Below, piece by piece: positions 1,815 through 64,000 of a stretch of 64,000 nucleotides of DNA. Both the position numbers and the translations under genes were made by a program. This stretch comes from Rhodospirillales bacterium (GTDB lineage: Bacteria > Pseudomonadota > Alphaproteobacteria > Micavibrionales > Micavibrionaceae), in assembly GCA_023898765.1 (NCBI GenBank), contig CP060238.1, positions 428,094 through 492,093 of the forward strand. The letters run 5' to 3'. Within the stretch, counting starts at the first letter, position 1; every line of letters begins with the position of its first letter. The notes beneath the pieces were generated by a model. That model was not told the origin of the DNA. It saw nothing but the letters and a program-made list of their open reading frames with translations, and did no database searches.

Positions 1815-1912
1815 AAAAACCACCCTCCTTATTCTCATCTAACCCATTGATTTAAAAGATTCAACCTTTGGCATAAAGATTGCAAATCTTCCGGAAAGGA
1901 ACAGGAGCCCTT

Positions 1913-5560: not shown

Positions 5561-8107
5561 ATGACACGCTATAACATCAAAGACTCCGAGGCCAAATGGC
5601 AGCAGGTCTGGCAAGACCGCAAAAGTTTTGAAGTCACGGAAGATCCGGCCAAAGAGAAGTGTTATGTGCTGGCCATGCTGCCTTACCCTTCCGGGCGCAT
5701 CCATGTGGGGCATGTGCGCAACTATACCCTGTCCGATGTGGTGGCCCGTTATAAAAAAGCCAAAGGCTTCAACGTCCTGAACCCTATGGGGTGGGACGCG
5801 CTGGGACTTCCGGCGGAAAACGCGGCCATGGAGCGGGGCACCCATCCGAAAGACTGGACCTACAAAAACATCGCCCAGATGAAAGAGCAGCTTTTGTCCA
5901 TGGGGCTGGCCATTGACTGGTCACGGGAAATTGCGACCTGCGATCCCGACTATTACCGCCATGAACAAAAAATGTTTCTCGACTTCTATAAGAAGGGGTT
6001 GGCCTACCGCAAGGAATCGGTTGTGAACTGGGACCCGGTGGAAAACACGGTCCTCGCCAACGAACAAGTAGTAGACGGCTGCGGATGGCGGTCCGGCGCC
6101 CCTGTCGAGCGCCGCAAGCTCTATCAATGGTTTTTCAAGATCACCGCATATGCCGATGAGCTTCTTGAAGGGATTCAAACGCTGGAGCGCTGGCCGGACA
6201 AGGTCCGCCTGATGCAGGAAAACTGGATCGGGAAATCCACCGGCGCGCAGTTCAGGTTCGACCTGACCACAGCCGATGGAACGGTGGAAGTCTACACCAC
6301 GCGCCCCGATACCCTGTATGGAGCCTCTTTCGTCGCCCTTGCCGCCGACCATCCGCTGGCCGAAAAACTGGCCGGAGAAAAAAACGGTTTTAAAGAGTTT
6401 GTGAAGGCCTGCCAGGCTGTCGGCACCTCCGAAGAAGCCATCGAAAAGGCCGAAAAAATCGGCTTCGATACAGGCCATAAAGTCGCCCATCCTTTCATTG
6501 AAAGCAAGGAACTGCCCGTTTACCTGGCCAACTTTATCCTCATGGATTACGGGACGGGCGCCATTTTCGGCTGCCCCGCCCACGACCAGCGCGACTTTGA
6601 TTTTGCGACAAAATACGGCCTCGATATTCTGCCGGTCATCTCCGCCCCCGAAGACGAAACGCTTCCCTATATCGGCGAAGGCACTTTGATGAATTCGGAT
6701 TTTATGAACGGCCTGCCTGTTGAAGACGCCAAAGCCGCTGCCATTCAAAAACTTGAAGCGCTGGGACGCGGCAGCGGCGTGACCAATTTCCGCCTGCGCG
6801 ACTGGGGAGTCAGCCGCCAGCGCTACTGGGGATGTCCCGTGCCTTTTGTGCATTGCGAAAGCTGCGGCCTTGTCCCCGTGCCGGAAGACCAGCTTCCCGT
6901 CGAACTGCCGTACGACATCAATTACGACGCGCCGGGCAATCCGCTGGACCGGCACCCGACATGGAAAAATGTGGCCTGCCCGCAATGCGGACGTGACGCC
7001 CGCCGTGAAACGGATACCTGCGATACCTTTTTTGAAAGCAGCTGGTATTTCCTGCGTTATCTCGACCCGAAAAACAAGGCGCGCGGTTTCGCGGATGAAA
7101 AATCGAATTACTGGATGCCTGTCGACCAGTATATCGGCGGCGTCGAACACGCCGTTTTGCACCTCCTTTATTCGCGCTTTTTTACCCGTGCCTTGAAAAG
7201 CTGCGGCTATGACGTGCCGGACGAGCCTTTTGCAGGACTCTTCACGCAAGGCATGGTTACGCATGCTACTTACAAGGACAAAGACGGACACTGGGTTTTT
7301 CCGGTAGAGATTGAAGAAAAAGACGGAAAGCTTGTGAAGACTACAGACGGTTCACCCGTTACCATCGGACGCATCGAAAAAATGTCCAAATCCAAGAAGA
7401 ACGTGGTTGATCCGCAGGATATTATCGATTGTTACGGCGCGGACGCCGCGCGCTTTTTTATTCTTTCGGACTCCCCGCCGGACCGGGATCTGGAATGGTC
7501 CGAAGCCGGCATTGAAGGGGCGTGGAAATATATCAACAAGCTCTACCGCGTCGTCATAGAAAGCAAGGACCGTCTTGGCGAAAAAAATCTCCCCATGCCG
7601 GCCAGCCTGAGCGAAAACGCAAAAGAATTGCGCACCGCCACCCATAAAACGATTGACGGGGTAGGCAAAGACATTGACGCCTTCCATATGAACAAGGCCG
7701 TCGCCCGCATCCGGGAATTTTCAAACGCGCTGGCCTCCTTCCAGACGAAAGAAAACGGCGACGACTGGGCGCTGCGCGAAGGATACGAAGCCCTCATCAG
7801 GCTGATGAACCCGATGATTCCGCATCTGGCCGAAGAGCTTTGGGCCGCGCTGGGCCATGAAACCCTGCTGGCCGATGAAAGCTGGCCGAAAGCCGATCCG
7901 GCCCTGTTGAAAACGGACAGCATCACCATCGCAGTGCAAATCAACGGCAAAGTGAAGTCGACCATTACCCTGCCCAGCGATGCCGGCAAAGACGAAGCCG
8001 AAAAAACCGCCCTGGCGGAAGATGCCGTACAAAAAGCGCTGGAAGGCAAAACGATCCGCAAAATCATCGTCGTGCCGGGCCGAATCGTCAACGTGGTCGC
8101 GGGATGA
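5561..8107 (+). CDS. leuS: leucine--tRNA ligase
   Basis: 848 aa. Class I motifs [11 protein letters not shown] and KMSKSKKN. Full-length LeuS-like sequence. Confidence 0.98.
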
Positions 8108-8616
8108 AAAAATTCTGCCTGATGTTCGTTTTCCTTCTTTCCGCCTGCGGGTTCCAACCGATGTACGGGACCCATTCGGGCGGCGGGTCCGTTCAAACGG
8201 ACATCGCCCGGACCTCCCAGGCGAGCCTGGACCGGATCGGCATTGATATAATTCCCGATGCCGAAGGCGTTTATTTGCGTAACGAACTTATAGACCGGTT
8301 TTACCGGAACGGCTATCCGGCAGAAAAAGCCTACCGCCTTTCGATCCAGCCCCTTCAGGAAACCAAAAAAGATTTTGACATCACGGTCGATTCGGAAGCT
8401 ACCCGCCGCCAGCTTACCCTCAAGACCGTCATGCGTTTAATTGATACGGCGTCAGGAAAAGAACTGCTGCGGCGAAACGTCAAGGCTATCAGCAGTTATG
8501 ACGTGATAGGCAGCCAGTTCACCACCCGCGTGGCCCGGCAAGACGCCCGCGAAGCCGCGTTAAACGATATCGCCCGCCAGATCGAGCTCCAGCTTACCTT
8601 GTTTTTTAACCGCTAA
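8104..8616 (+). CDS. lptE: LPS-assembly lipoprotein LptE
   Basis: ATGA overlap with leuS. Lipobox LLSAC followed by GFQPMYG. Conserved leuS-lptE-holA synteny. Confidence 0.8.
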
Positions 8617-40406: not shown

Positions 40407-42506
40407 TTAAACCCGTCTTTCATTTGTGCCTTGATGATACCCCCGGCTATGGAAGAAAGCCTGTAAGGCATCAAGCCTGGTTTTTATCTTCGCAAGCATG
40501 TTTTCCTTAAAGGACTGGTTATCTTCATAATTTTGTTCTGCTTCCGCACAAGCCTTCGCAAGCATGTTTGCTCCCAGATTCGCCGCCGCTCCTTTCATGC
40601 GATGCGCAGCCCTCTGCCAGTCTTCACTTTTATCATCCGTGCAGCTTTCTTCCAGTTCGCCGATGCTTAATTCCGTTTGTTTAAAAAACAGATCCAGCAA
40701 CTCTTTCTCCTCTTCGGGATCGCCATCGGTAAATGTTTCGAAATGCTTCATATCAACAGGCGGCTCCAGTTTTTCTTTTTCCGGCGTCGGTGAAGCATCG
40801 TTTGTCGTTTTATTTGAAATTTGTTTTTGTATGGCTTCAATGATTTTATCCGCCTTAACGGGCTTGCTGACATAATCGTCCATGCCTGCTTTCAAACATT
40901 TTTCCCTGTCCCCGATCATGGCATTTGCCGTTAAGGCTATAACAGGGAGATGCCTGTCCGTTCCCTGTTCTTTTTCCCGCAGGATTGTCGTCGCGTGATA
41001 GCCGTCAAGCACGGGCATTTGACAGTCCATCAGAACAACATCATAGGAATTGGCATCAATCATATCCAGAGCTTCCTGTCCATCATGCGCCAGATCAACA
41101 TAGGAAAAGCCGAGCTTTTTAAGCAGTTTTATAATGAAAACCTGATTTACAGGATGGTCGTCAACGGCAAGTATTCTGATATTCTTCCGTATCTCTTCGG
41201 TGTCATAGCTTTTGTCTTTGTCGAGAAGGTTCACCGGCTCCATATCTTCATCGGCTGTGCTCAGAGGCACCGTGAACCAAAATGTCGAACCCTGCCCTTC
41301 GACGCTATCAACGCCTATCTTGCCTCCCATCATATTGATAAGCTGCTGGGTAATGGCAAGCCCCAGCCCCGTTCCGCCGAATTCCCTTGTGACCGAGGTA
41401 TCGGCCTGCGTAAATTTTTCAAAAATGGCGTCTTTTTTATTTTCGGCGATTCCTATGCCTGTGTCTTTGACGGCAATGAACAGGTACGGTTCTTCTTTTT
41501 CAAAAGCGGTTTTCAGGAAAACGGTTACGCTTCCCTTTTCGGTAAATTTGATAGCGTTGCTTATCAGGTTTCTAAGGACCTGTTGTATTCTGCTGTAGTC
41601 GCCAATAACCGTTGAAGGCACTTTTTCATCGCGGTCAAGCGTTAACGCAAGCCCTTTGTCATTCGCAATAGGCAGGAATAGCTGGACAACCTGTTGCGCG
41701 GCGATTCCTATATGGAAAGGCACATTTTCGATTTCCAGCTCACCGGCTTCAATTTTGGAAATATCAAGTATATCGTTTAAAAGAGATAGAAGGTTTTGGC
41801 TTGAGCCATGCAGTATTTCAGCATTGTCTCTCTGATCCGGACTAAGATTGGAATCCAGAATAAATTCGGTCATGCCGATTATGCCGTTTAGAGGTGTGCG
41901 TAATTCATGACTCATATTGGCGAGGAATTCGCTTTTCGCAATGTTTGCAGATTCCGCTTTCTCCTTTTCTTCCCTTAACTCTTCTTCAAAAGATTTTCTT
42001 TCTGTGATGTTGCGTTCTATAGCGGCGAAATGAGTAATGTTTCCTCTTTTGTCTTTTACGGGAACAACGCTGATATCCAGCCAATAGGGGACGCCGTCTT
42101 TGGTATAGTTTTTTAATTCGCCTTGAAACGACCTGCCTTTGGAGAGGGATGTTTTTAAGGCATCGAGGACTTCCCGGCTGGTGTCTTCGCCTTGTAAAAT
42201 GCGCGGTGTTTTTCCTATGATTTCTTCGGCGTCATAGCCGGATATTTTTGAAAAAGCGCCATTAACATAGACGATTTTCGGCCCATTGTTCTCCAGATCT
42301 GCCGTCGTGATGACGATGGCATCGTTGGCGTTAATGACAGCCGCTTCCAGCAATCTGGCGTCTTCATGCAGCTGTTCGTTTAACGCATAGATTTCCCGGC
42401 TTTTTCCTTCCAATAGGGTTTCTGCCTCCTTCCGCGCTTTCTTTTCACGGGCGAGGCGTTTTTCCAGCCGGGAAATTTTCCTGTCTTTATCGATATCTTC
42501 ACTCAT
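40407..42506 (-). CDS. hybrid sensor histidine kinase (coiled coil-PAS-HisKA-HATPase-REC-HPt), HnoK-like
   Basis: H-box MSHELRTPLNGI, G2 GTGLGLAI, REC ILAVDDHP...VLMDCQMP, HPt AAHRMKGAAANLGA. ATG 42506 forms an ATGA overlap with the H-NOX stop. Confidence 0.9.
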   Translation of the reverse strand: MSEDIDKDRKISRLEKRLAREKKARKEAETLLEGKSREIYALNEQLHEDARLLEAAVINANDAIVITTADLENNGPKIVYVNGAFSKISGYDAEEIIGKTPRILQGEDTSREVLDALKTSLSKGRSFQGELKNYTKDGVPYWLDISVVPVKDKRGNITHFAAIERNITERKSFEEELREEKEKAESANIAKSEFLANMSHELRTPLNGIIGMTEFILDSNLSPDQRDNAEILHGSSQNLLSLLNDILDISKIEAGELEIENVPFHIGIAAQQVVQLFLPIANDKGLALTLDRDEKVPSTVIGDYSRIQQVLRNLISNAIKFTEKGSVTVFLKTAFEKEEPYLFIAVKDTGIGIAENKKDAIFEKFTQADTSVTREFGGTGLGLAITQQLINMMGGKIGVDSVEGQGSTFWFTVPLSTADEDMEPVNLLDKDKSYDTEEIRKNIRILAVDDHPVNQVFIIKLLKKLGFSYVDLAHDGQEALDMIDANSYDVVLMDCQMPVLDGYHATTILREKEQGTDRHLPVIALTANAMIGDREKCLKAGMDDYVSKPVKADKIIEAIQKQISNKTTNDASPTPEKEKLEPPVDMKHFETFTDGDPEEEKELLDLFFKQTELSIGELEESCTDDKSEDWQRAAHRMKGAAANLGANMLAKACAEAEQNYEDNQSFKENMLAKIKTRLDALQAFFHSRGYHQGTNERRV

Positions 42507-43045
42507 TGTTTTGTTAAGGTAAAGATCCTGCAAAACTGACCTTCGGTGTTTTTATCTTCACCTTCGATTGTGATGTTTTCCTTGTAAAAATCGGCGCAGC
42601 CCTGCATCAAGCCATGTGCAAAATCGGCAAAAGGGCACTGGGACCTGTAGGTCATTTTTAGCACGTTTCCGTTTTGCCTTTCCGTTTCAAATGAAGGGAG
42701 AACGGCATCCGGATAGAGCTTTTTTACTTCCACGTGAATATAGTCGTGCACGCCTTCCAAAAATTCAAAGGCGGATTTTTGTTCTTCGAACAGTTGGGGC
42801 ATCAGTTTATTGAAACGGAAGAAAAGATGATGCCCGTATTTATAGACCAGATCCCTGACACTCAGTCCGGAATGCTTGCTAAGGGTGCCGACGATTTCGA
42901 GCAGCTCCCGATGATCATAGGTGCCGACGGCCGTATAGGCCCCTCCGGACTCAAGATCGCAATCGTCAAAGACGTCATCCATCATGTCCTCGCCAAATGT
43001 TGCTTCCACCATATCAATAAGCTCTGTGAAAACGATTCCCTTCAT
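42503..43045 (-). CDS. hnoX: heme-NO/O2-binding (H-NOX) sensor protein
   Basis: MKGIVFTEL..., proximal-His region VHDYIHVEVKKLYPDAVLPSF, and MTYRSQCPFADFAHGL (a YxSxR-type motif with Cys in place of Arg). 180 aa. Confidence 0.88.
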   Translation of the reverse strand: MKGIVFTELIDMVEATFGEDMMDDVFDDCDLESGGAYTAVGTYDHRELLEIVGTLSKHSGLSVRDLVYKYGHHLFFRFNKLMPQLFEEQKSAFEFLEGVHDYIHVEVKKLYPDAVLPSFETERQNGNVLKMTYRSQCPFADFAHGLMQGCADFYKENITIEGEDKNTEGQFCRIFTLTKQ

Positions 43046-43089: not shown

Positions 43090-43944
43090 CTAACCTGAAT
43101 GGTTTTGTATGTAATGCAGTAATTGCTCTTTCAGGAACGGCTTGGCGATAAAGCCGCTGGCGCCTTCTTCCAGCGCTTCGGCGATATTGTCCAGATTATT
43201 ATTGCTGCTGAACATAACGACACATAGGCCCGGGTCGTTGCGCATAATCCAGCTTAATACTTCACGGCCGTTCTTATCGGGTAAATCAATATCCAGAAAA
43301 ACAATGTCGGGCTGAAAAGAGTGAATTTTGGAAAAGGACTTGTTCGCCGTCGCCGCCGTGACAAGATCACAATCATGTTTGAGGCTTTTTCTTACCATCC
43401 AGCGCGTAACGGGATCGTCCTCGACCAAAAGAACCCTTGTTTGTCCTTGTCTGTTTTTGTTGGTTTTGACAGCGAACGTTCCTATGTCCGGCGCCCCTTT
43501 TTCATCAGGAAAGGCGTAAAGATCGGCATAAGCCGAGGCGGAAACCGAAAGGCTTTCATCCTCTTGTTTAAGCGCGCGCCGAACATATAAAGGCCCCTCC
43601 TGTTCCAGATCATAAATGGCAAGCGCGCTCGATAACGAAGTCTCGTCTTCGATTATATGGCGTATCTGTTCACCGGCCTGGGCCAGAGCGCGTTTTGATA
43701 CGTTCTTGCAAAAAAGATGGATCTGGAAATTTTCACAAAAAAAGACCTCTCCTTCTATCTCTTTGAAATACGATTGTAACAGGGGCTGTATTAAAGGGAT
43801 GCAGCCTGAAAAGGATGCCTTGTCGCCTTCTTCGTCCAATTCGATATGCAGGCACCTCCAGTCCTGCCAACTCAAAGGGGTTTTGCCGATGGATGTAATA
43901 ATTTGAACCAGTCTTTTGTCTTTTTTACCGGATTGAATATCCAT
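43090..43944 (-). CDS. response regulator: unrecognised N-terminal domain + C-terminal receiver
   Basis: REC RVLLVEDDP...IVFLDIDLPD...GFIAKPF at the C-terminus. Start set at ATG 43944 (MDIQSG) with an AGGGGGAAGGA SD. Confidence 0.8.
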   Translation of the reverse strand: MDIQSGKKDKRLVQIITSIGKTPLSWQDWRCLHIELDEEGDKASFSGCIPLIQPLLQSYFKEIEGEVFFCENFQIHLFCKNVSKRALAQAGEQIRHIIEDETSLSSALAIYDLEQEGPLYVRRALKQEDESLSVSASAYADLYAFPDEKGAPDIGTFAVKTNKNRQGQTRVLLVEDDPVTRWMVRKSLKHDCDLVTAATANKSFSKIHSFQPDIVFLDIDLPDKNGREVLSWIMRNDPGLCVVMFSSNNNLDNIAEALEEGASGFIAKPFLKEQLLHYIQNHSG

Positions 43945-44848
43945 TTCCTTCCCCCTTTTGTTTTGCCTGAACGAACGGTGATTTTTCGATGTATTGGAAA
44001 AGCTTCTCCTTTGTAAAAGGTTTGACGACAAATCCTTTGGCGCCCTGCGCGACAGCCTTTAAGACATTTTCCCTGTCTCCCTTACCGCTCAGCATGACCA
44101 CATAAGCGTCAGGATCAATTTCAAAGATTTTTTTCAAAACATCGTGGCCCGTAATGTCAGGAAGTCCGATATCCAGAAAAAGAATGTCGGGCGCTTTGCC
44201 CGCGTAAGTCATAATGGCTTCACGGCCGTTTTTGGCCGTAAGCACATAATGTTCTTTGCCGAGGGCGTTCTTAATCAGCCGCTGCGAAAATAAATCGTCT
44301 TCAACAAAAAGGATTTCAGGGACGTCCCTTGCAGAGCGTCTGGACGATAATGTGGATATAAGCTTTTTTTCAATTTCTATATCCAGAAGTTTTTGCCGGT
44401 ACAGTTCCGCCTCTTTTTCGGCTTTTTGCTGTGCGCGTTTGTTTTTTTCGATTTCACTATTTTCAATTTTACGGGCGCAAATGGGCTTGAGCGCTTCCAG
44501 ATCAACCTTGATTTCATAAAGAAAAGCCAGATCCTTCGAAAACAGAGGCCGGGAGAAGGGGGCAGGCGTAAGTTTGGCGGCTAAATGGGCTAAAAACCGG
44601 CCGAGGTTTTTCTTGGTGATAAACTTTGTCAAAATAAACACGTCGTTATCGTTGCAAAGAAAAACCTCCCCCGCTTTATCGTCAAAAAAGGCATCAAGTT
44701 CTTTTATGAAGGGCTGAAACCATTTTTGTGACTCAATGCCGGATTGAGAGAACTTTAAATAAAGGCATCTTTGCGATGTGTTCTTTTTCCAATGGTTTTG
44801 AATAGAGTCAAACAAGGACCTTTCGGCATCTTCTTTAACAATTTTCAT
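43925..44848 (-). CDS. response regulator: unrecognised N-terminal domain + C-terminal receiver (paralog of 43090-43944)
   Basis: REC ILFVEDD...ILFLDIGLPD...GFVVKPF. The N-terminal ~190 aa is paralogous to the neighbouring gene. Confidence 0.8.
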   Translation of the reverse strand: MKIVKEDAERSLFDSIQNHWKKNTSQRCLYLKFSQSGIESQKWFQPFIKELDAFFDDKAGEVFLCNDNDVFILTKFITKKNLGRFLAHLAAKLTPAPFSRPLFSKDLAFLYEIKVDLEALKPICARKIENSEIEKNKRAQQKAEKEAELYRQKLLDIEIEKKLISTLSSRRSARDVPEILFVEDDLFSQRLIKNALGKEHYVLTAKNGREAIMTYAGKAPDILFLDIGLPDITGHDVLKKIFEIDPDAYVVMLSGKGDRENVLKAVAQGAKGFVVKPFTKEKLFQYIEKSPFVQAKQKGEGNGYSIR

Positions 44849-44891
44849 CTCGACTCCCTTCCGTTAAAATAAGTTTTCATAATATCTTTAT

Positions 44892-44907
44892 AGCAACCGG
44901 CATGCCA
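44892..44907 (-). promoter_or_regulatory. sigma-54 (-24/-12) type promoter
   Basis: Minus strand reads TGGCAT-GCCGG-TTGCT versus consensus TGGCAC-N5-TTGCW. It lies 44 nt upstream of ATG 44848. Confidence 0.6.
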
Positions 44908-45080
44908 AAATTTTTGTGCTTATTTTTCAACGGCTTATGCGAATCCTTCCTTAAGTTATTCTCATTTTGAAACGTTTTATTTTGATAATTTTTATGCATA
45001 AATCTCAAATTAGAACGCTTTTTTAATCTTTATTTGTTAGCCTGATGACAGGGGTAAAAACATTTCGGGAGACCAGCCAT

Positions 45081-45986
45081 ATGTCCGATTCAATCCTGAT
45101 CGTTGAAGATGATCCTATGCAGCAAAAAATGCTTGGAACGTTGCTGCGCCGGAAAATCGGGTTTGAATCACAAGTCGCCCCTAACGGGCGGGAGGCTTTG
45201 GACATTCTTGGCAGGGATGACAAAAGAGCTATAAAGCTTGTGATTCTTGATATTGACATGCCCGTTATGGGGGGGATGGAGGCTCTGGAGATTATGGCGC
45301 AGCGTTATCCGGGCCTTCCCGTCATTATGCTGACGGGGACCAGGGATATTGAAGAGGCGGTCAAGGCGATCAAGCTTGGCGCTATCGATTTCATGACCAA
45401 GCCGTATGAAGGGGAAAGGATGGCAATAACGGCTAAAAATGCTCTTAAGCTCAGCATCCTTTCTAAAGAAGTAAAACGGCTAAAAAACGAAAAGGAAGGC
45501 CACTATAGATTTGACCATTTAATAGGCCATGACGGCGGTCTGCAGGAGGCCGTTAATATGGGGCGCAAAGCCGCAGCATCTGACATACCCGTCCTTATTT
45601 CCGGAGAGACAGGCGTTGGAAAGGAAGTGTTCGCCCAAGCCATCCACGGGGAAAGTGCGCGCTTGGGAAACCCGTTTATCGCCGTCAACTGTGGCGCTAT
45701 TCCGGCACAGCTCGTTGAAAGCACCTTGTTCGGACATGAAAAAGGGGCTTTTACCGGCGCAACAGATAAGGCCACAGGCAAGTTCCGCGAAGCCGAAGGG
45801 GGCACGATTTTTCTGGATGAAGTGGGCGAGCTTCCACTGGATTCCCAGGTAAAGCTCTTGCGTATCCTTCAGCAAAAAGAGGTTGAGCCTGTCGGGGCAA
45901 GCAAAGCCGTTCCTGTAAACATACGCGTTTTATCGGCGACCAACCGCAACCTTGAAGAAGAAGTCAAGGCAGGAAACCTTTGTTAA
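45081..45986 (+). pseudogene. NtrC-family sigma-54-dependent response regulator, 3'-truncated
   Basis: REC (ILIVEDDP...ILDIDMP) + AAA+ (GETGVGKE, GAFTGA, IFLDEVGE). It ends ...EEVKAGNLC* where homologs continue FREDLYYRL. The rest of the AAA+ module and the HTH are absent. Confidence 0.8.
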
Positions 45987-46078
45987 ACCTGCTGGCATGG
46001 TTGTCTTTAAACACTCTCGGCCACCGCAAGTCCAGCCTTTAACAGGAGGTTGCTTATGCAGCACGACATCACAAAACT

Positions 46079-46369
46079 TTGCGCAGATTCTTTGCGCTCC
46101 TATCGTCATGTACTACCGGCCCGAATGGGGAGAAAGTCAGCGGCCATTATCAGTTAGGATATGAACGCTACGAGCCTTGTGAAGATGGCTATGTATTGCG
46201 GGAAAGCCAGCAATACAACCAAGCAAAGTGCTATGTTGCAAGATGCGCGCCGGGAAGATACAGCAATGATAATCATTATTGCGACAGCTACCAAGCCGTT
46301 TTGCGCCCAAAACCCAACTACGTAAAAATGTGGGTTGATGGTGATTATCTGGGGCAGTATTTTTACTAA
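46079..46369 (+). CDS. possible Cys-rich lipoprotein, 96 aa (doubtful start)
   Basis: MRRFFALLSSC lipobox-like N-terminus, but a TTG start without an SD. A strong AGGAGG-ATG at 46056 opens a different 33-codon frame, so this may be frameshifted. Confidence 0.3.
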   Translation: MRRFFALLSSCTTGPNGEKVSGHYQLGYERYEPCEDGYVLRESQQYNQAKCYVARCAPGRYSNDNHYCDSYQAVLRPKPNYVKMWVDGDYLGQYFY

Positions 46370-46444
46370 CACCTCTTGCGGTTGTTAAATCGGTGGATTT
46401 TTTGCAAAGTTCTTGAAAATCTGGCGTTTTTTCTAAATTACCCC

Positions 46445-46472
46445 TTGTCCCCCCCCCCCCGATTTTTATAAT
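46445..46472 (+). promoter_or_regulatory. sigma-70-like promoter with a poly-C tract in the -35/spacer region
   Basis: TTGTCC (46445-46450), 16-nt spacer, perfect TATAAT (46467-46472). The C12 run occupies the end of the -35 element and most of the spacer. Confidence 0.55.
46449..46460 (+). repeat. homopolymeric C12 tract
   Basis: Twelve consecutive C, 76 nt upstream of ATG 46536. Confidence 0.95.
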
Positions 46473-46535
46473 ATAAACTGTGGAATTCTAAGTGTTTTCC
46501 GCTCACGATTGTATTCAACCCAGATTTTGTTCGAT

Positions 46536-49500
46536 ATGCGCTTGCCGGGAAAACAGTTTAGACATTTTACCACTGGACTTATGTTCCTTTTGCTCATCCC
46601 GCTCCACTGGGGATTTTCGGCAAGCCCGGTCAATGCAGGGGAAACTTCATCCTCTCTGGTATTTCAAAAACTTGATAATATTGATCCCGAAGCCCTTTCT
46701 CCTGAAGAAGCGAAAAGCCTGATTCGTGAACTGAAAAGTTTGGCGCAGAAAGAGGAGGCGGCTTCTTCTTCATTATATAAAAGCACCCCTTATCCCAAAA
46801 AAGAGCGTGAATACAGCGCGTGGGAGCGGCGTATCGCGCAGGAAGTCATTGCCACGGGGCAAATGCTGGAGGGCGACCCCAGATTTGATGATGTGGTGTC
46901 CACGTTGGCGCAGCGTGGTCGCTCGATATTGCCGGATGGTTCTAACGTGACGCAGGACTGGGTGCGGGAGAATTTGCAGGATGTTTTACCCGCGATTGAT
47001 AATAAAATGGCGGCAGCGGCGATGAATGCGGCAACGGGAGAGATTGCCAGAGGAACCGGCGACATGGCGAACGGTTTTGCCCAATCACAGATAGGATCGC
47101 AAATTGGCTTATCCGGGGAAGGGCAAAGCTATGATCTAGGCGGCAATCTTAAACAAACGGCCATTCGCAGCGGCCTGGAAGGGGTAAAGGCAGCAGCGTC
47201 GGCAAGCGATATTTATGCTCTGAATCACCTGGAACTGGAATACTCCCTTTCGGGTGACGGAATTGATGAATACTCGGTTTTAACCGTCCAACCGCTCTGG
47301 GACAGTGCCGATTTGCGTCATAACATTTTCGCGCAGGCTTCCTACGCCAACAAACAGGTTGAAGATATAGGTGCGGATACAAGCCAGCGCCGCGATACGG
47401 TGAATGCCGGGCTTGCTTACCGCTACATTACACCAGATGAACAGCATATGTTCGGGGCCAATGCCTTCTTCGATCACCAGTGGCCGTATCACCATAATCG
47501 CATGTCGTTGGGGCTGGATTATAAAACCAGCCTGTACGGTGTGGCGTTCAATAAATATGTCGGCCTGTCCGACTGGCGCGGACGTGATGACGGTTATGAA
47601 GAAAAAGCATTAGGAGGTGAAGATCTGGAAGTTTCGGGGCGTTTGCCCCAAGCCCCGGAACTGGAAGTGTTTGCCAAGGGCTATCATTGGAGTCAGGAAA
47701 AGACACCTGTTATCAATCCGGACGGGGACGATATATGGGGCTATCAGTTTGCGGCGGAATACACGCCGGTGAATGCCTTTACGATCCGTTCCCAAGCGAC
47801 AAGAGACAATGAAATGGACGATATGGAAGGGCAGATTACCATGCGCCTGAATTATCGTTTCGGGCAGGGATGGGATGATTTGTGGAAGCGCCCGACTTAC
47901 AATCTTGATTCCGTTCTGGATCGGCGTTTTGAGAAAGTGCGCCGGAACAATGAAATACGGGTACAGGTGCGTCAAGACCCTGATGTAACGGCGCGCGTGA
48001 CCTTTGCACAAGGGGCAAATGTCAGTGTCGGGCAATCTCTGGCCTTCGGCACGACGATTACGACCGGCGGCGCGGGCGGCGACGGAGCCACGGTAGTCTT
48101 CGGCAACGGCGCAAGGCTGGATGTGGGACAAAATACGCAAGTGCGGATTGAAAAAGACCAGATCGTCCTGATTACCGGGATTATACAATTCACCAGCGGC
48201 AGTGGCGGCATAACGGTTATTGCCGTGCCGGGCGGTACAATCGACCTGATAGGAACGGACGTGGATGTGCGCGTATCGGGCGGCACCACGACGCTGCGGG
48301 TGCGTGATGGCGCAGCGGACTTTACAGACGATACCGGTACAACGCGCGTGAATACGGAAGAACTGGCCGAAGCACAGGATGGGGATGGGCTGGCACCGCA
48401 AATCCGCGCCGAAGGTACGGCCATTTATGAGACACATACAAGTGAAGCGCACACGCAGCTTGATCTCGTCGGCCCGCAGCCTTCCAATCCGAAAGCCGCG
48501 CCTTTTGCCGATGAAGCGGTCAGTGTGGCCGGCACGCTGGCTACGGGCAATACACTGACCTTTACCGTGCCATTGACGGGAAGCGTCACGGTCACCGGAA
48601 TGCCGAGGCTACGCTTTACCCTGGGCGGTCTGGATCGTCTGGCCGATTATGCGAGCGGCAGCGGCACATCCACGCTTGTCTTTACTTATGATGTTGTGGG
48701 TGCGGATGAAACATTGTCCAATATCGTTGCCGAGGAAATCGAGAAGAACGGCGGTACGTTGACCGGCACAAACGGCGCGCCGATGGTGCGGACGGTCAGC
48801 GGCGGATTGTCCGGCACGGTGCCGGATGTCACCATGCCGACGATTGCAGGCTTTACGGCGGTATCGAGCGGCGGCGACCCGGCAGGAATTGGCGATATAA
48901 TCACGGTGACATTAAACGCGAATGAAGACCTTGTGCAAAGCGGCACGCCGAGCTTAACGCTGAATATTGGTGGCACGTCCCGCACCGCGAATTTCTCCGC
49001 GATCAATGCCGGTAACGCCGAATTTACCTACACGGTGCAGGCGGGGGACAATGACGCGGACGGGATCACGATTACCGCGATCACTGTGGCGGCGGATGAG
49101 CTGGAGGATGCGTCCGGCAACGATCTGGATACGACATTTGCTCTGCCACATAATTTAAGCCTTGATGTAAGCACGATCCTTCTAGGTCTTTCATCTTGCC
49201 CGTCCGGTGATTTGTCCGCCCCGGCCAATTCAGGCTGTGCGCGCCTGTTTGGGGCGGATCCCACGGATATGGATGATGTGATGGTTTATGCCGGGGATGT
49301 ACCGGGCACAACCACGGACTTCTTCGTGCGCCGCTGTGATCTGGGGCAGGACTATGACCCGGTTGACGACCGCTGTGAAAATGGCGGCGGCGATCCGAAT
49401 ACCAGAGATACGATGCAATGGAAAAATGCCAATACGGAATCCGACACAACGAATATAGGAACGGGTACGGCTTGGACAAATGTAAATGCCACGGATGGCC

Positions 49501-49862
49501 CTGGCAATACGGCAACGCTTGTGGCCGATGTATCAGGTACGCACACGGCGGCGGAAACCTGTAATGCTCTGTCCGGCGGTGGCTGGTATCTGCCGGCGAT
49601 TTCGGAACTGGATGTGATCTATGCCAATTTGAATGCGACAGACGATCCCGACCATCCATTGCCGACAGTCAATGATGCGACAGATGATGATAACAGCGGC
49701 ACGACCGGTCCGTTGCGTAGCAGCTTTGATCTCAGCGGCCAATGGTACTGGTCGTCCTCGGAGCCCAATAGCGGCGGCGCATGGATACAGCGCTTCAGTG
49801 ACGGTGGCCAGAGCAGCAGCAATAAGACGCCTTTCCGTAGCGTCCGCTGTGCCCGGAGATGA
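46536..49862 (+). CDS. inverse autotransporter (intimin/invasin-family) adhesin with FecR-like, Ig-like and C-terminal DUF1566 (Lcl C-terminal, lectin-like) domains
   Basis: Signal peptide ...SPVNA-GE. The beta-domain matches the invasin pattern (GLAYRY...FGANAFFDH...RMSLGLDY...NKYVGLSDW...EEKALGGEDLEVSGRLP...AAEYTPV...RLNYRFGQGW). The C-terminus reads GGWYLPAISEL...WYWSSSE...AW...RSVRCAR. Confidence 0.85.
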   Translation: MRLPGKQFRHFTTGLMFLLLIPLHWGFSASPVNAGETSSSLVFQKLDNIDPEALSPEEAKSLIRELKSLAQKEEAASSSLYKSTPYPKKEREYSAWERRIAQEVIATGQMLEGDPRFDDVVSTLAQRGRSILPDGSNVTQDWVRENLQDVLPAIDNKMAAAAMNAATGEIARGTGDMANGFAQSQIGSQIGLSGEGQSYDLGGNLKQTAIRSGLEGVKAAASASDIYALNHLELEYSLSGDGIDEYSVLTVQPLWDSADLRHNIFAQASYANKQVEDIGADTSQRRDTVNAGLAYRYITPDEQHMFGANAFFDHQWPYHHNRMSLGLDYKTSLYGVAFNKYVGLSDWRGRDDGYEEKALGGEDLEVSGRLPQAPELEVFAKGYHWSQEKTPVINPDGDDIWGYQFAAEYTPVNAFTIRSQATRDNEMDDMEGQITMRLNYRFGQGWDDLWKRPTYNLDSVLDRRFEKVRRNNEIRVQVRQDPDVTARVTFAQGANVSVGQSLAFGTTITTGGAGGDGATVVFGNGARLDVGQNTQVRIEKDQIVLITGIIQFTSGSGGITVIAVPGGTIDLIGTDVDVRVSGGTTTLRVRDGAADFTDDTGTTRVNTEELAEAQDGDGLAPQIRAEGTAIYETHTSEAHTQLDLVGPQPSNPKAAPFADEAVSVAGTLATGNTLTFTVPLTGSVTVTGMPRLRFTLGGLDRLADYASGSGTSTLVFTYDVVGADETLSNIVAEEIEKNGGTLTGTNGAPMVRTVSGGLSGTVPDVTMPTIAGFTAVSSGGDPAGIGDIITVTLNANEDLVQSGTPSLTLNIGGTSRTANFSAINAGNAEFTYTVQAGDNDADGITITAITVAADELEDASGNDLDTTFALPHNLSLDVSTILLGLSSCPSGDLSAPANSGCARLFGADPTDMDDVMVYAGDVPGTTTDFFVRRCDLGQDYDPVDDRCENGGGDPNTRDTMQWKNANTESDTTNIGTGTAWTNVNATDGPGNTATLVADVSGTHTAAETCNALSGGGWYLPAISELDVIYANLNATDDPDHPLPTVNDATDDDNSGTTGPLRSSFDLSGQWYWSSSEPNSGGAWIQRFSDGGQSSSNKTPFRSVRCARR

Positions 49863-49999
49863 ACCATTTAATCATTTAATAATTTAACTGTCCCCGCGAA
49901 GCGGGGTCGCTACAAATTTTTTGCAGAATTTTTTAAAAACATCTTTTCTTACAGTTGGTTAATACGCACAATAGAGGTCTGTATGAAGGGTGTTTTTTA

Positions 50000-50347
50000 A
50001 TGGCGCAATACCAGCATTTGCCAATTTACAAGTTGACCTATGATCTGCTTTTGCGGATTATGCAGGTGACGAAGAATTTTCCGCGCGAATATAGGCACAC
50101 ACTTGGGCAGAAGCTGAAAGAAGAAATTATTGAGCTGGTCGTTATGATCTATAAGGCCAACACAGCCAAGGACAAGGAGCATCACATTGAAATGATCCTT
50201 GAGCGCATTCAGGTGGTGCAGTTATTGATAAGATTGTCGCATGATATAAGAATATTGCCGCGTAAGCATTACGTAGACCTTGCCGAGAAAATCGACAGCC
50301 TGGCTCGTCAGGCGCAAGGGTGGCTCAAGAGTTCGGGAAAGAGATAG
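50000..50347 (+). CDS. four-helix-bundle protein (23S rRNA intervening-sequence protein / Avd-like family)
   Basis: MAQYQHLPIYKLTYDLLLRIMQVTKNFPREYRHTLGQKL... is typical of this family. 115 aa from ATG 50000. Confidence 0.8.
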   Translation: MAQYQHLPIYKLTYDLLLRIMQVTKNFPREYRHTLGQKLKEEIIELVVMIYKANTAKDKEHHIEMILERIQVVQLLIRLSHDIRILPRKHYVDLAEKIDSLARQAQGWLKSSGKR

Positions 50348-50426
50348 CCAGAACGGGTTGCGGCCAAGGCCCGGCCCGGCGAGCGTGTTCATCTCGGATG
50401 ATGGCGGTAACGGTTTCAAAAGGAAA

Positions 50427-50467: not shown

Positions 50468-52222
50468 CTAGGCCGCTTCCGCGTATTCTTCCTCGTCCTC
50501 AAAGTCGGCGGATTCTTCAAAATTCTCTTCCTCCGGCTCATCTTTGGCATCGGGATTGATAGCGGGAAACTGCATGGCTTCGGGAATCCAGAACGTAGCT
50601 TTTAATTCATCTTGGTTCGGAGCTTCCAGTGTCAAAACGTGCTGGAAGTGCTTTGCCATTGAGGACACAAGTTCTTTCTTCTTGTACCCCGCCGCACTAC
50701 CGTACTTTTGGGAGCAACCGGCCTCGCTGATAATTTTCAAAAGCTGTTCCTTGTTGCGGCGTTTCAGGAACGCTTCGTCAGGCCGCCAGTAATCCCGCAT
50801 ATCGACATTCAAATCCGCCGCTATCTTGTTAAACAGGCTGTCTGCATTGGTATCAAGACGATCAACAAAGCTCTGACCAAACTCTAAAACTTCCAAGGCC
50901 ACCAGAATTTCTTCCAGTTGTTCATCGGACAAGGACTGTACGGCCATATATGCCCCTTCCATATTGTAAGAAAACAAATAGCCCAAACTATGCCAACTTT
51001 GGCGGTCTTCGTCCTGTTCAATGGCTTCCTTATCGACACCGAACAATCCCAGAAGATCAGTGCATTTATCATTGATAACCTTGAGGGCAGGGGGGGTATA
51101 TCCTTCCTGCATAAAATAAATCAAGGCATCGTGATTTTTAAAGCGATACAACTTTTGGGTCACAGCCAGTTCCTTTGCTTTTCTCGGATTTCCGAGCAAA
51201 GCGGCCTGTACTGCCACGCTCTTGTGCATGGACATATTACGCACAAGCGGGGTGGAGTAGGTGGGTTTCGGCTTTTTCAGGGCATCCGTGGTCGATTTAT
51301 CGGCCTTGGTTTTGGTAAGTCCTTCATGGACTTCTACTTCACCATCTGAATGAATAGCCACGATAACGCCGCCTTTCTCACCTTCTGGGGCTTCGCCGTA
51401 TTCCCATGAATGGAAATGCCCTTCAAGCAATTCAGCCCATTCAGCGGTGTTTGAGTGTTCTTCTACGAGTTTTTCTGCCGCCGCTTTTTGCAACTCGAAA
51501 AATTGCTCAAAATCGTTGAAATAGGTGGCATCATCCTCGGCGAGAAGGTCTTGCGTGAAATCGCCTGTGTATTCGGCTTTATCAAAAATTGCCATAGACA
51601 CACTCGGCAAATTGCCAAGAATCATGTCTTTTACATCTTCCGCGTCATTGTAACTGGAAGTCGCGCGGCCTAAGACCCTTTCCTGCTGTTCATGGCTTCC
51701 GATGCTCAAGGCTTCGGCTTTTGAAAGCGTGAGTTCACCTTCGATTAAAGCCTGTTTCGCCGCTTCACAAAGGTCTGTCAGAGCAAGGCGGCGTTTGATA
51801 GTCGCCACGGCAAGACCCGTTTTTGCGACAATATCATCCAGTCTTTCGCCATCCTGAACCAAGAGCTTGATAGCTTCGGCTTCTTCCATTGGAGAGAGGT
51901 CTTCCCGTTGCATATTTTCCATTGTGGCAATACGCTGTGTTTCTTCATCCGATAAGTCGGCTTTGATTTCAACCGTCACCTCGTAATCTTCGGGCAAATC
52001 GCCTTGCTCCTGCAATAGAGACAAAGCCCGAAAACGGCGTTCACCGCAAATAATCGGGTGCATTTTCTTTCTGCCTTTGGGTTTGCCGACAATCAGGTTT
52101 TGAAGCAATCCGTCCGTTTTAATGGACAGTGCCAATCCTGCGATAGTGGCATCATCAAAGTTTTTACGCGGGTTTCCAGTTGAAGGCTGGATTTTTGAAA
52201 GTGGTAATGTTTGCAAAGTCAT
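50468..52222 (-). CDS. ParB/Srx N-terminal domain protein of the plasmid/ICE-borne type, 584 aa
   Basis: LPLSKIQPSTGNPRKNF...LLQNLIV...ICGERRFRAL ParB-like nuclease fold motifs, a long C-terminal extension and an acidic tail. ATG 52222 with a GGAGAA SD. Confidence 0.8.
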   Translation of the reverse strand: MTLQTLPLSKIQPSTGNPRKNFDDATIAGLALSIKTDGLLQNLIVGKPKGRKKMHPIICGERRFRALSLLQEQGDLPEDYEVTVEIKADLSDEETQRIATMENMQREDLSPMEEAEAIKLLVQDGERLDDIVAKTGLAVATIKRRLALTDLCEAAKQALIEGELTLSKAEALSIGSHEQQERVLGRATSSYNDAEDVKDMILGNLPSVSMAIFDKAEYTGDFTQDLLAEDDATYFNDFEQFFELQKAAAEKLVEEHSNTAEWAELLEGHFHSWEYGEAPEGEKGGVIVAIHSDGEVEVHEGLTKTKADKSTTDALKKPKPTYSTPLVRNMSMHKSVAVQAALLGNPRKAKELAVTQKLYRFKNHDALIYFMQEGYTPPALKVINDKCTDLLGLFGVDKEAIEQDEDRQSWHSLGYLFSYNMEGAYMAVQSLSDEQLEEILVALEVLEFGQSFVDRLDTNADSLFNKIAADLNVDMRDYWRPDEAFLKRRNKEQLLKIISEAGCSQKYGSAAGYKKKELVSSMAKHFQHVLTLEAPNQDELKATFWIPEAMQFPAINPDAKDEPEEENFEESADFEDEEEYAEAA

Positions 52223-52443
52223 GGTATTTCTCCTTTTTGCTTTGGTTAGGTTAAAAAGTGCGTGTCGCACTTCTTTCCTATGGGCCGCGCAGCGGCTTCT
52301 AAGCGCCAGGATCCGTCAAGCTTGAAACCCTTCGTAGAAGGGGCAGGCGAAATTTTATTGTCTTTCCTAGCTTGCGACGGAAAGCAGTAAAATTTTCGGC
52401 TTTCGGGCTTTACGGAGACAGGCAAGAGAAAAAACAAAAAAGC

Positions 52444-60798: not shown

Positions 60799-62376
60799 TC
60801 ATTCTTGATCAATGAAATTCTCTTGATTATTTGTGTTGCTTATTTCATCCAATCCAGCTTCCAGACGCATGCGTTTTTCCTTGGCGCGTTGGCGATGCTT
60901 GCGCTCCCAATCGCCGCCTGTCAGCGCCGCTGTTTCTTCGGCCAGAGTTGAAATACCCATGTCCACACGTTCGCGCGCAGCTTTGCCTTCCTTAAGCTGG
61001 TCGATCTGGCCTCTCGGCGGCCCGAATCCATTCACTGCCCAAATAGGCAGCGCGGATCATAGGATCAGAGAAGAAACCGGGAGCGTTTAAATATCCTCTG
61101 GCAACAGCCTCTGTAATCACAGCCTCATAAACGGGCTGGCAGAACATGCAAGCTAGCCATTCCCGGCGGGAGCGAAAAACTTCCATGCTTCCAGCAGTGC
61201 CGCCTGCGCCGCCGAATAACTGGCCGTGAAATGCTTCACCACCAGCAGCTCGAAGGGAATTTCCAGCGCAACACCCACTTGCCGCAGGATGGCCAGCACA
61301 AACTGGTCAAAGGCCGCGTTCGGGCGTTTGGGATCGGCAATCTCCACGCTTTCGTAAGGTAACAAATCCAATATTGCGCCGGGGCCAAGCTGGAAATCCT
61401 TATCATCGCGCCCAGAACCAGCACCATCTTCCATCGGCGCAAGGCCGTCCGGATCTTCGGATTTAATGAATACGCTGAACATGGCCGACACCACCGCTGC
61501 CATCAGCTCGGCTTCGGAATATTTATCCAGCTGCTTGAGGCTTTCAATAACAGGCGCCAGATAAGGTGCTGGCCGTGTCATGCCCACCCGCGTAGGACGT
61601 GCCAGATGATTGACCAGCCAATTACCCTCGCGGTCATAAGCACGAAGCCGCACCCATTGCCGTGATCCGGGATCCCGAACATCACCGGGATGTGCCTGCA
61701 AAACATGATAGGCCAGAGGTGATCCCAGCGCATTTTTCTCAACACCGCCAGCCAATCTGGGTGCATCCATCGTCCAGTCAGGATTGCTGATGCGGTCTGC
61801 TTCGACCAACTGCAGACATGTGCCATATCGCGCACCGGGCCTTTGTGTGAAGCGGCGCAGAACAAAAACATCCCCAGCTTCTAAAACAGAGCGCAGTGCC
61901 AGATCCTGCATTCCGGAAAAATCCTGCATATGGGAGGTATCGCAATATTTGGAAGCGGCCCAATAGCGAAACTCACGCTCGGCGGCCCGCTCAAAGGCTT
62001 CGAAATCCTCTTCCTTATTGCCCAGAATGCCTTTCAGAACATCGCGATCCACGCGGGATTGCACTTTGAGGCCAGTGCCGACAACATTTGTGACCACCGT
62101 GTTAATGGCACCCGTTGCCAGCGGCGCATTGCGGATTAAATCGCGGGAACGCTCCCGTAACGCCGGAAGGTCAGGCAATGTGACCTGATCGGCGCTGCCG
62201 TCTATCGTATGCCATGCCTTGGTCTGGCGGCGGTCTTTACGTGCGCCTGTATAACCGCCATACAGTGCCATGACTGTTTTGGCTTTCAGGCGGCGTACAC
62301 CTGCTTCAGGCGAAATCCAGCCAATGACTTTATCAAGCGTGGTAGGTTCTGGTAGCGAAATGCGTTTTCGGCTCAT
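60799..62376 (-). pseudogene. lambda-family phage portal protein gene with two frameshifts
   Basis: Three consecutive ORFs (61153-62376, 60992-61186, 60799-61035) read through as one portal. Shifts occur at the A5 run 61175-61179 (EAWKFF|RSRREWLA) and near 61021-61027 (SEW|GPPRGQID). Confidence 0.85.
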
Positions 62377-63010: not shown

Positions 63011-63507
63011 TCCGCGTTTGAATTTTTACCATCGGCGGTCATCTCAACTGCGCTTGGCAATCCGACAAGAGCCGCACCGCGCTGGACGCCCTTAACCACC
63101 ATCACCAAACCGAATCTCTCTTCCTGTTCAGCCCAGATCGGAGAAAATGACTTTTCAATATCGGTCAGCGCGAAACCTGCGGGTTGCTGTCCGTTCAGTA
63201 CGGCATCAATAATGCGTGGCGATAGCAGCATGATGCGCATCATGCGCTGGAGATAGGATTTATTGATATTTTCTGCTGCGGCAATTTCAGAGACAGATTT
63301 ATACTGACCTATGGCCAGAATTTTTTGCCAACGATACGCACGACCCAGCGCCTTGAGCAGCTTTTCATCTTTCCGCACTTCTAAATCAAGCCTTCTCAAA
63401 TCTTGACCTTGCGGGCCGACCAACACTTTCTTGCCACCCCAGCGCCGCAGGTTAATTGGGATGCGAACGATGATTTTTTGATCTTCTGCGTGGTATTGTA
63501 GATTCAT
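62869..63507 (-). CDS. recombinase-associated C-terminal module (helix-turn-helix-like); 3' third is probably read-through
   Basis: ...LLKALGRAYRWQKILAIGQYKSVSEIAAAENINKSYLQRMMRIMLLSPRIIDAVLNGQQP resembles the tail of alphaproteobacterial serine recombinases. Meaningful similarity ends near 63108. ATGA overlap with the recombinase ORF suggests a split or separate gene. Confidence 0.5.
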   Translation of the reverse strand: MNLQYHAEDQKIIVRIPINLRRWGGKKVLVGPQGQDLRRLDLEVRKDEKLLKALGRAYRWQKILAIGQYKSVSEIAAAENINKSYLQRMMRIMLLSPRIIDAVLNGQQPAGFALTDIEKSFSPIWAEQEERFGLVMVVKGVQRGAALVGLPSAVEMTADGKNSNADCAYGQSLAALPSWSCLIICGRTRLRRKAVSRIRLDMFTCRRWMKNI

Positions 63508-64000
63508 GCTTCAGCCCCATGTTTAATTTTGTGCTCTATTTCCTGCTGCAATTGAGAGAGAATATTTTCGATGCCATTGGCGCGGTATTCAATATCGATG
63601 CAGTTGCCATGCACCGCTACACGGTCAATCAACAAATGCGTAATGCGTTTTTGTTCAGCAGGCACAAGAATGTCCCACAAAGACCCCATGCGCTGCATCG
63701 TGCTGTGCAATTCTTGCTCGCTGTACTTGGGGATGTCCGTTTTTACCTTTTTCCAGACATCGACGATGACTTGTGGTTTTACAAAAATGCTTTGCATCTG
63801 CCCTTTGATAACATCTTCGATTTCACCCGCGGGGATACGATTGGCAGGACAAAGCTCGCAAGATTGCCTGCGATAAGAATTCGCCGAATAATAATGATAA
63901 TTTTTATTTCCTTTTTTCGTATGGGTGGGGGACATGGCACCGCCGCAGCCACCGCAAACCAGAATGCCTTTCAGCAGAGCCTTTGATTTAGCCTGATAGG
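63504..64000 (-). CDS. large serine recombinase (partial; the 5' part lies beyond the window)
   Basis: The frame stays open to position 64000 and reads ...SKALLKGILVCGGCGGAMSPTHTKKGNKNYHYY..., the zinc beta-ribbon of large serine recombinases. Confidence 0.85.
   Translation of the reverse strand, partial: YQAKSKALLKGILVCGGCGGAMSPTHTKKGNKNYHYYSANSYRRQSCELCPANRIPAGEIEDVIKGQMQSIFVKPQVIVDVWKKVKTDIPKYSEQELHSTMQRMGSLWDILVPAEQKRITHLLIDRVAVHGNCIDIEYRANGIENILSQLQQEIEHKIKHGAEA

Follow-up and report, generated by a model that had tools for sequence, protein, structure and literature searches.

A conserved sigma-54-type promoter facing an H-NOX phosphorelay operon, and a truncated NtrC-family activator gene beside it, in a Micavibrionaceae genome

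A 64,000 nt stretch of DNA (the window) from a Rhodospirillales bacterium of the Micavibrionaceae, corresponding to positions 428,094–492,093 of the forward strand of contig CP060238.1 in assembly GCA_023898765.1, contains a minus-strand operon for two response regulators, an H-NOX sensor and a hybrid histidine kinase and, divergent from it, a gene for an NtrC-family enhancer-binding protein that is cut off within its AAA+ domain. Judged from its sequence and its conservation in relatives, the element at 44907–44892 in front of the operon is a genuine sigma-54-type promoter. The region is best explained, with a probability that we put at roughly 0.8, as one copy of a conserved five-gene module of Micavibrio-like Alphaproteobacteria and some Pseudobdellovibrionaceae, a sigma-54-controlled phosphorelay module in which the cognate activator appears to have undergone ordinary, recent pseudogenisation.

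The module was recognized in a comparison set of 17 orthologous loci, one on a metagenome contig and 16 in species-representative genomes labelled Rhodospirillales, Alphaproteobacteria, Micavibrio or, in two cases, Pseudobdellovibrionaceae. In 17 of 17 loci an intact gene for an activator of ~460 residues lies divergently upstream of the orthologue of RR307, the response regulator encoded by the first gene of the operon. The flanks beyond the module, on both sides, are not conserved between species, and because this outer DNA differs the five genes behave as a unit. More than 120 full-length homologues of the activator, also ~460 residues long, are 67–76% identical to it over the part that is retained in the window. 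They continue past the break as FREDLFFRLNVL...WPGNVRQLEN...AKALGMAKSTFYKK, with a FREDLFFRL segment and a helix-turn-helix (HTH) domain, and full-length orthologues can be aligned with Aquifex NtrC1 over their entire length (E = 8e-91). When a full-length orthologue (P0004) was scored against the named equivalogs of NCBIfam (NtrC, NtrX, LuxO, AtoC, FlbD, ZraR, NorR and others), it fell below every cut-off (393.5 against 502.6 for PEP_resp_reg, 384 against 559 for NtrC and 351.8 against 800 for LuxO). H-NOX is absent from eight of the modules (L016, L018, L021, L022, L024, L025, L026 and L027), and the kinases of these have a different N-terminal sensor region, in some apparently membrane-spanning. 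H-NOX is therefore an optional, exchangeable input to a conserved core made up of the activator, the two response regulators and the kinase.

The sigma-54 −24/−12 element (TGGCATGCCGGTTGCT, 44892–44907, minus strand) reads TGGCAT-GCCGG-TTGCT from 44907 to 44892, with the −24 GG at 44906–44905 and the −12 GC at 44894–44893, and it satisfies the canonical TGGCAC-N5-TTGCW spacing. It is intergenic and points at the operon, with 44 nt from the final base of the motif to the ATG (44848) of the RR307 gene. An initial annotation of this DNA had proposed a sigma-54 promoter at this position, and both the sequence and the comparative data agree with it. Two matches to TGGCAY-N5-TTGCW were found in the 64 kb, where 0.20 would be expected, and only 1 of 100 shuffled sequences attained two. 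The position weight matrix scan suggested in the initial annotation, made with a matrix trained on the 17 orthologous sites and excluding the site in the window, gave the promoter the highest score in the window, 27.2 bits, with 16.8 bits for the runner-up and a maximum of 19.6 bits over 20 shuffles. A TGG-N9-(T/C)GC element was present upstream of the orthologous operon, and facing it, in 16 of the 17 loci; the exception, L018, has GT at −12. Transcription would start near 44881, giving a 5′ untranslated region of ~33 nt. An Rfam scan of 44600–46600 gave no match. No RpoN box was found in the window or in any of the retrieved orthologous loci, and a search of the literature on Micavibrio rpoN and on contig CP060239 found nothing useful.

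Further upstream, conserved blocks with hardly any gaps were revealed by a MAFFT alignment of 15 intergenic regions. One of these, TAA-N4-TTGA(T/A)W at window positions 44937–44925, fits the reverse complement of the IHF consensus, WATCAANNNNTTR. The window sequence (TAAGCCGTTGAAA, 44925–44937, minus strand) has one mismatch to the consensus YAANNNNTTGATW and begins 30 nt upstream of the TGG, and on this match it is a putative IHF bend site at about −50. TAA-N4-TTGA was found 29–31 nt upstream of the TGG in 14 of 18 loci (the 17 orthologous loci, which include the distant L026, plus the window). Another block is a palindrome of ~30 bp, TTCTCA...CGAACGTTTGA...TGAGAA, with ACGT at its centre. 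In the window it occupies 44959–44988 on the minus strand (TTATCAAAATAAAACGTTTCAAAATGAGAA; half-sites HS2 and HS3), with its centre ~93 nt upstream of the inferred start, and the left arm is slightly degenerate, reading TTATCA where most relatives have TTCTCA. The HS2/HS3 pattern was present at the matching position in almost all of the alphaproteobacterial loci, and the distance from the ACGT centre to the TGG was 64–68 nt in the 14 of 18 loci where the ACGT centre was found. A third half-site, HS1 (AAAGCGTTCTAATTTGAGA, 45003–45021, minus strand), lies ~131 nt upstream of the inferred start and corresponds to the block AAAGCGTTCgATTTTgAGAA of the alignment.

The HS2/HS3 palindrome, with half-sites of the CGTTYGAWWWTGAGAA type, is a candidate binding site for the activator. 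From the half-sites (about −131 and −93) through the IHF-like site (about −50) to TGGCAC-N5-TTGC at −24/−12, the overall layout is the classic sigma-54 arrangement, and promoter and activator otherwise make up a standard NtrC-type arrangement. The half-sites, being conserved, offer a testable operator for this activator subfamily. The HTH of the activator differs in L026 (LARALGVARTTLYRRL), and the corresponding intergenic position in this locus holds another palindrome, GTGTAGCA-tttt-GCTACAC. In L027 the HTH differs too, yet there is no clear palindrome in the intergenic region. Co-variation of HTH and upstream site, as seen in the single locus L026, would be consistent with this promoter being activated by the product of the divergent gene. 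The initial annotation had placed the enhancer at a perfect 12-bp palindrome, TTTATGCATAAA. This palindrome does exist, at 44991–45002, but was rejected as an enhancer, as it falls in the variable spacer between the conserved sites at 45021–45003 and 44988–44959, is not conserved in any orthologous locus in the alignment and is statistically ordinary, the window having 21 perfect palindromes of 12 bp in all.

The activator gene (45081–45986, plus strand) retains the receiver and, as far as the SATN motif, the AAA+ core. Codons 1–299 of the open reading frame (ORF) are homologous to the family and are followed by Leu, Cys and a stop codon derived from foreign DNA, so that the 301-residue product ends in ...EEVKAGNLC (...SATNRNLEEEVKAGNLC). 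The receiver (Pfam Response_reg, E = 7e-26, residues 5–114) has EDD, LDIDMP, MLTG and TKP motifs and the phospho-acceptor Asp. Walker A (GETGVGKE, residues 175–182, 45603–45626), the sigma-54 contact loop (GAFTGA, residues 222–227, 45744–45761) and Walker B (IFLDEVGE, residues 243–250, 45807–45830) are all present, and Pfam Sigma54_activat is matched at profile positions 1–154 of 168 only. The product thus stops, as originally read, where the family goes on with FREDLYYRL, or FREDLFFRL in the orthologues. In addition to this segment it lacks sensor II (WPGNVREL), and neither AAA_lid_14 nor HTH_8 was detected in it by Pfam. The FREDLYYRL segment carries the arginine finger in the structures of NtrC1 and PspF. 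A product without the arginine-finger segment, sensor II, lid and HTH would therefore be unable to hydrolyse ATP as a ring or to bind upstream sites. On the parts retained, it cannot be expected to act as a sigma-54 activator, and the gene is, to all appearance, a fixed pseudogene; the earlier view that the neighbouring enhancer-binding protein looks non-functional is borne out. Consistent with the original reading, no remnant of the missing C-terminal part was found in any frame of the window, where the best tblastn matches beyond the gene had E ≥ 0.08, and no C-terminal fragment of the activator was found in contigs of the same species. An in-frame tblastn extension of the homology past the stop codon proved on examination to be noise.

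Re-sequencing had been recommended to exclude an assembly error. The truncation is real: independent metagenomes yielded the identical 301-residue product on at least 23 contigs, which come from ENA, Logan and NCBI assemblies made with several assemblers, have at least two haplotypes downstream and are 99.9–100% identical to the window over the operon and the activator gene. The H-NOX protein was indexed in 45 blocks, and the truncated activator was its neighbour in 4 of the 4 loci shown. The closest non-self protein among 5.8 billion was 76% identical, and thus no intact allele from this species is on record. The product has been deposited as USO04139.1 (1.90-Mb contig) under the annotation "sigma-54-dependent Fis family transcriptional regulator", an entry that ought to carry a flag marking it as a truncated pseudogene.

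Homology to the family runs to 45978 (...GGAAAC), and the 126 nt that follow (45979–46104) are common to both downstream haplotypes. This junction segment contains a ribosome-binding site and the first 16 codons (ATG at 46057) of a gene for a 219-residue protein, an island gene found intact in strain L003 alone. In that strain the truncated gene and the sequence up to 46104 are as in the window, but different DNA follows, namely the intact 219-residue gene and then AbiEi/AbiEii. As the two haplotypes have the truncated gene in common, the truncation is older than the turnover in island content. Three contigs end at 46003, suggesting that there is further variation at this point. In the window, a patchwork of mobile-element genes lies to the right of the break, including genes for ParB-like, Fic, TrbL/VirB6, HipA and DUF3800 proteins, a VirB4 fragment and the remnant of a diversity-generating retroelement (DGR). 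The mobile region extends to the end of the window, near which there is a lambda-type phage portal gene (61153–62376). The break had been described as coinciding with the edge of a mosaic island, and the adjoining DNA is indeed strain-variable and mobile. No tRNA gene was found in the window, and the junction has no repeat and, among the Pfam-annotated ORFs, no integrase. Translated comparison of the window with the 6.4 kb downstream of the activator gene in 16 relatives revealed no synteny anchor to the right of this gene. Exact look-ups of the last ORFs of the window (63504–63935 and the portal gene) gave no record.

A second decayed copy was found elsewhere. When a profile of the C-termini of the orthologues was compared with the protein database, the top match was an orphan fragment of 160 residues (P0121/P0241) with AAA_lid_14 and HTH_8, and its frame starts ...R-N-FREDLFFRL, the exact complement of the break in the window. 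The fragment is on CP060239.1 (2.24 Mb), which belongs to different USO and MCB accession blocks from the window genome. There, the 3′ 160 codons of an activator gene (8036–8518 of the retrieved locus L061) start at the same GAAAC at which the window copy ends and abut an internal piece of an RR284-like receiver (7729–8004, minus strand) that is 68% identical to RR284, the second response regulator of the window operon. P0121/P0241 was considered as the missing half of the window gene and rejected, as it is in another genome and the RR284-like piece beside it is only 68% identical. From its sequence, the debris on CP060239.1 represents another copy of the module, in a more advanced state of decay, carried by a related organism whose DNA came from the same type of sample. 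A pair of IS3-type transposase-like ORFs (6313–7547, judged by translation and not domain-scanned) and a Y1 transposase (Pfam Y1_Tnp) are also found beside it. Debris of the module spans 5917–8518 of L061 and was also seen in L060 and L062–L066. The overlap between the two halves that remain is the pentamer GAAAC, though the search query began at FREDL and was hence biased. The coincidence may be due to chance, to a hot spot or to an old insertion that duplicated 5 bp of its target. It is rather unlikely, in our estimation, that what we have is an undescribed, self-contained module typical of predatory-type (Micavibrio-/Bdellovibrio-like) bacteria that is being lost in parallel in two activated-sludge lineages at one GAAAC site. 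If this were true, the GAAAC breaks would point to a hot spot for site-specific insertion or recombination, or to an ancestral insertion with a 5-bp duplication, rather than to random decay.

The following scheme would account for the arrangement. In the intact relatives, NO-bound H-NOX, where present, would modulate the kinase, and phosphate would pass, to judge from domain content and linkage, from the kinase REC domain to Hpt and on to RR307, RR284 and the activator. Once phosphorylated, the activator would assemble on the upstream sites and, with looping assisted by IHF, open the sigma-54 promoter, the outcome being feedback control of the module. In the organism studied here, a rearrangement with mobile DNA would have replaced everything beyond codon 299 of the activator gene, and the promoter would have lost its cognate activator. 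Sigma-54 promoters are normally silent without an activator, and the simplest expectation is therefore that the operon is now uninduced. The loss would be recent in substitution time, because the promoter, the sites and the four operon ORFs are still intact.

Another sigma-54-type candidate (TGGCATAAAGATTGCA, 1869–1884, plus strand) lies ahead of a gene whose ATG, at 1913, is 28 nt away and whose 289-residue product matches neither Pfam nor NCBIfam; it is divergent from an OmpR-type gene (1128–1838). A perfect IHF consensus, TAACCCATTGATT, lies upstream of it at the same spacing as in the H-NOX promoter, the composite spanning 1840–1884. The composite IHF plus sigma-54 pattern occurs at two places in the window and in 0 of 200 shuffles. 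This second composite site speaks for the use of sigma-54, and of one or more further activators, in this genome.

Several points weigh against the view that the operon has simply fallen silent with its activator. The four ORFs are intact with no clear decay, and the lack of clear relaxation of constraint in their products would be compatible with an operon that is still in use as well as with a loss that happened very recently. At columns that are otherwise invariant, RR307 has six singleton changes, RR284 one, H-NOX one, the kinase four and the N-terminal part of the activator two; six is the highest value among 16 sequences, a modest excess confined to RR307. A sigma-70-like sequence, TTGGCA-18-TATTAT (10 of 12 matches), overlaps the sigma-54 element and could support basal transcription. 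The assignment of the divergent gene to this promoter as its activator gene draws on conserved linkage and on the co-variation of HTH and site at one locus, L026, and should be read as probable. The operon may thus still be expressed, either from the sigma-70-like promoter or through another enhancer-binding protein, cross-binding or acting from solution, so that induction and feedback would be lost and function kept. We consider this possible, though less probable than not. The intact promoter and upstream sites, a truncation that is older than at least two island haplotypes beside an undecayed operon, and the second sigma-54-type promoter, which implies another activator, speak for it along with the points above. 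However, the intact ORFs weigh little in a population that is almost clonal, and expression would have to come about despite the normal silence of sigma-54 promoters that lack their activator. Specific recognition is hinted at by upstream sites that differ where the HTH differs (L026 only), and RR307, which has the most lineage-specific changes, is frameshifted by a 1-nt deletion in one assembly.

Pseudogenisation of the cognate activator was also weighed against three further readings. The protein might have been retained for a new role, as a phosphate sink competing with RR307 and RR284 at the kinase Hpt or as a GAFTGA decoy, and its 299 undisrupted codons, its intact acidic pocket, Asp, Walker A, GAFTGA and Walker B, the mere two lineage-specific changes at invariant columns and the intact region upstream of the gene would all suit such a role. 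An open frame is, however, what any truncation would show if it were recent and the population nearly clonal; an AAA+ domain cut before the arginine-finger helix and the lid would, from the NtrC1 and PspF structures, be unlikely to fold or oligomerise; and no other lineage has a conserved protein of this length, the short forms in the databases being frameshifts or contig ends. We regard a new role as distinctly unlikely. Still less credit can be given to a gene split by a large excisable element, with its 3′ half beyond the window and rejoined on excision in the way that developmentally excised elements restore sigK or nifD. The mobile region does reach the end of the window, leaving its far edge outside, and a complementary 3′ fragment beginning at N-FREDL does exist in the databases, but that fragment belongs to CP060239.1, another genome. 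There was no other 3′ fragment among the 120 matches listed in the profile search of 5.8 billion proteins (P0121 and P0126 were traced, and neither is from this species). Two strains with the same 5′ part carry different DNA from 46105 onwards, and the absence of a repeat, a tRNA gene and an integrase (among Pfam-annotated ORFs) at the junction is a further difficulty for this very improbable arrangement. It is hardly credible that the motif arose by chance or is the −35 element of a sigma-70 promoter and that faulty assembly or sequencing produced the truncation. TTGGCA does resemble TTGACA and has TATTAT 18 nt downstream, but GG and GC are found at the exact spacing in 16 of the 17 loci, including the TTGC that would lie within the sigma-70 spacer, and an error would have to have recurred in the contigs from independent metagenomes and several assemblers described above.

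We know of no description of an H-NOX phosphorelay operon under sigma-54 control by a dedicated neighbouring activator, and the comparison defines a conserved module in which this is apparently the case. A close parallel is found in Vibrio harveyi/campbellii, where H-NOX controls the cytosolic hybrid kinase HqsK and phosphate passes through LuxU, the Hpt step, to the sigma-54-dependent LuxO (10.1101/2020.03.31.019307). HqsK-LuxU-LuxO and the module share H-NOX with a hybrid kinase, an Hpt step and an NtrC-type response regulator. LuxO, however, is unlinked to hnoX, integrates several quorum-sensing receptors and targets the qrr small RNA genes, whereas in the module the activator gene is a divergent neighbour, sigma-54 control would fall on the H-NOX operon itself, Hpt is fused to the kinase and the window activator is truncated.

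SypG of Vibrio fischeri is a sigma-54-dependent activator. In this species HnoX, encoded in an hnoX-hahK operon, negatively controls HahK, which acts through SypF/SypG on syp-dependent biofilm, with SypG as the proximal DNA-binding regulator (PMC12369376). Transcription of hnoX-hahK was analysed there from a sigma-70-type promoter predicted by BPROM and proved to be repressed by Zur, and no sigma-54 control was reported (PMC12369376). Unlike the activator described here, SypG is encoded away from hnoX, in the syp locus, and the V. fischeri system is without paralogous response regulators that bear an N-terminal domain lacking a Pfam match. In the HnoX-HnoK systems of Shewanella and Vibrio cholerae, one kinase feeds several response regulators encoded nearby (HnoB, HnoC and HnoD). 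The outputs there are cyclic di-GMP enzymes and a transcriptional repressor, in contrast to the sigma-54 activator and the regulators with the Pfam-less N-terminal domain in this module.

The domain order and the tripartite promoter, consisting of upstream activating sequence, IHF site and sigma-54 element, are those of Aquifex aeolicus NtrC1 (PDB 4l4u and 1ny5) and of the NtrC/DctD modules. Unlike NtrC1, the window copy stops just before FREDLYYRL, and the full-length orthologue is not an equivalog of any activator named in NCBIfam. Helicobacter FlgR, Chlamydia CtcC and Rhodobacter FleT are sigma-54 activators that lack the HTH and act without upstream sites, and they have a complete AAA+ domain. 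The window protein falls outside this class because the arginine-finger segment, sensor II and the lid are gone as well. The locus offers a natural case of a sigma-54 promoter minus its cognate activator with the rest intact, and a test of how far a promoter depends on its own activator.

The contents of the operon, two response regulators, H-NOX and a hybrid kinase on the minus strand, were confirmed by Pfam. RR307 (43925–44848) has an N-terminal domain of ~175 residues without a Pfam match followed by REC, and RR284 (43090–43944), whose gene overlaps that of RR307 by 20 nt, is a paralogue of the same architecture with 29% identity. After a gap of 44 nt comes the gene for the 180-residue H-NOX (haem-NO-binding) sensor (42503–43045; Pfam HNOB, E = 6.8e-41, profile positions 1–162 of 163), which overlaps by 4 nt, as in translational coupling, the gene for the 699-residue hybrid kinase (40407–42506; PAS, HisKA, HATPase, REC and Hpt). 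In 10 aligned H-NOX orthologues the His in IHVEVKK is invariant, and in place of the canonical haem-propionate motif YxSxR all 10 have Y-x-S-x-C-P; we assume that these residues map onto those of Tt H-NOX in this way.

The N-terminal domain shared by the two response regulators (~170 residues; 43435–43944 in RR284 and 44324–44848 in RR307, minus strand) has no Pfam model, and that of RR307 gave no Pfam match even at E = 5. A word-index search for homologues of the RR307 domain returned a single fragment, and a single-sequence AlphaFold model of it (predicted local distance difference test score 44.6) was of too low a quality for classification or for a fold search. The family is small, with 87 representatives among 1.84 billion clusters, and nearly all of them are proteins of ~300 residues made up of the N-terminal domain and REC.

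The alternative haplotype to the right of the truncated gene (L003:8797–11291) encodes the 219-residue protein, of unknown function, the AbiEi/AbiEii toxin-antitoxin pair and a metallophosphatase. The DGR remnant in the window (46509–50425) consists of a target gene (46509–49862; IAT_beta, FecR and Lcl_C) and bAvd (49955–50347); no template repeat was found in the window, and there was no reverse transcriptase among the annotated ORFs. The window diverges from strain L005 after 50425, where it has instead the ParB-like gene (50468–52270, minus strand). In L005, a template repeat (L005:10854–10940) follows bAvd and differs from the variable region of the window (~49743–49829) largely at template adenines. 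Upstream of the DGR target gene, a poly-C tract (46441–46453) differs in length by one C between assemblies, which may be sequencing noise or a slippage tract.

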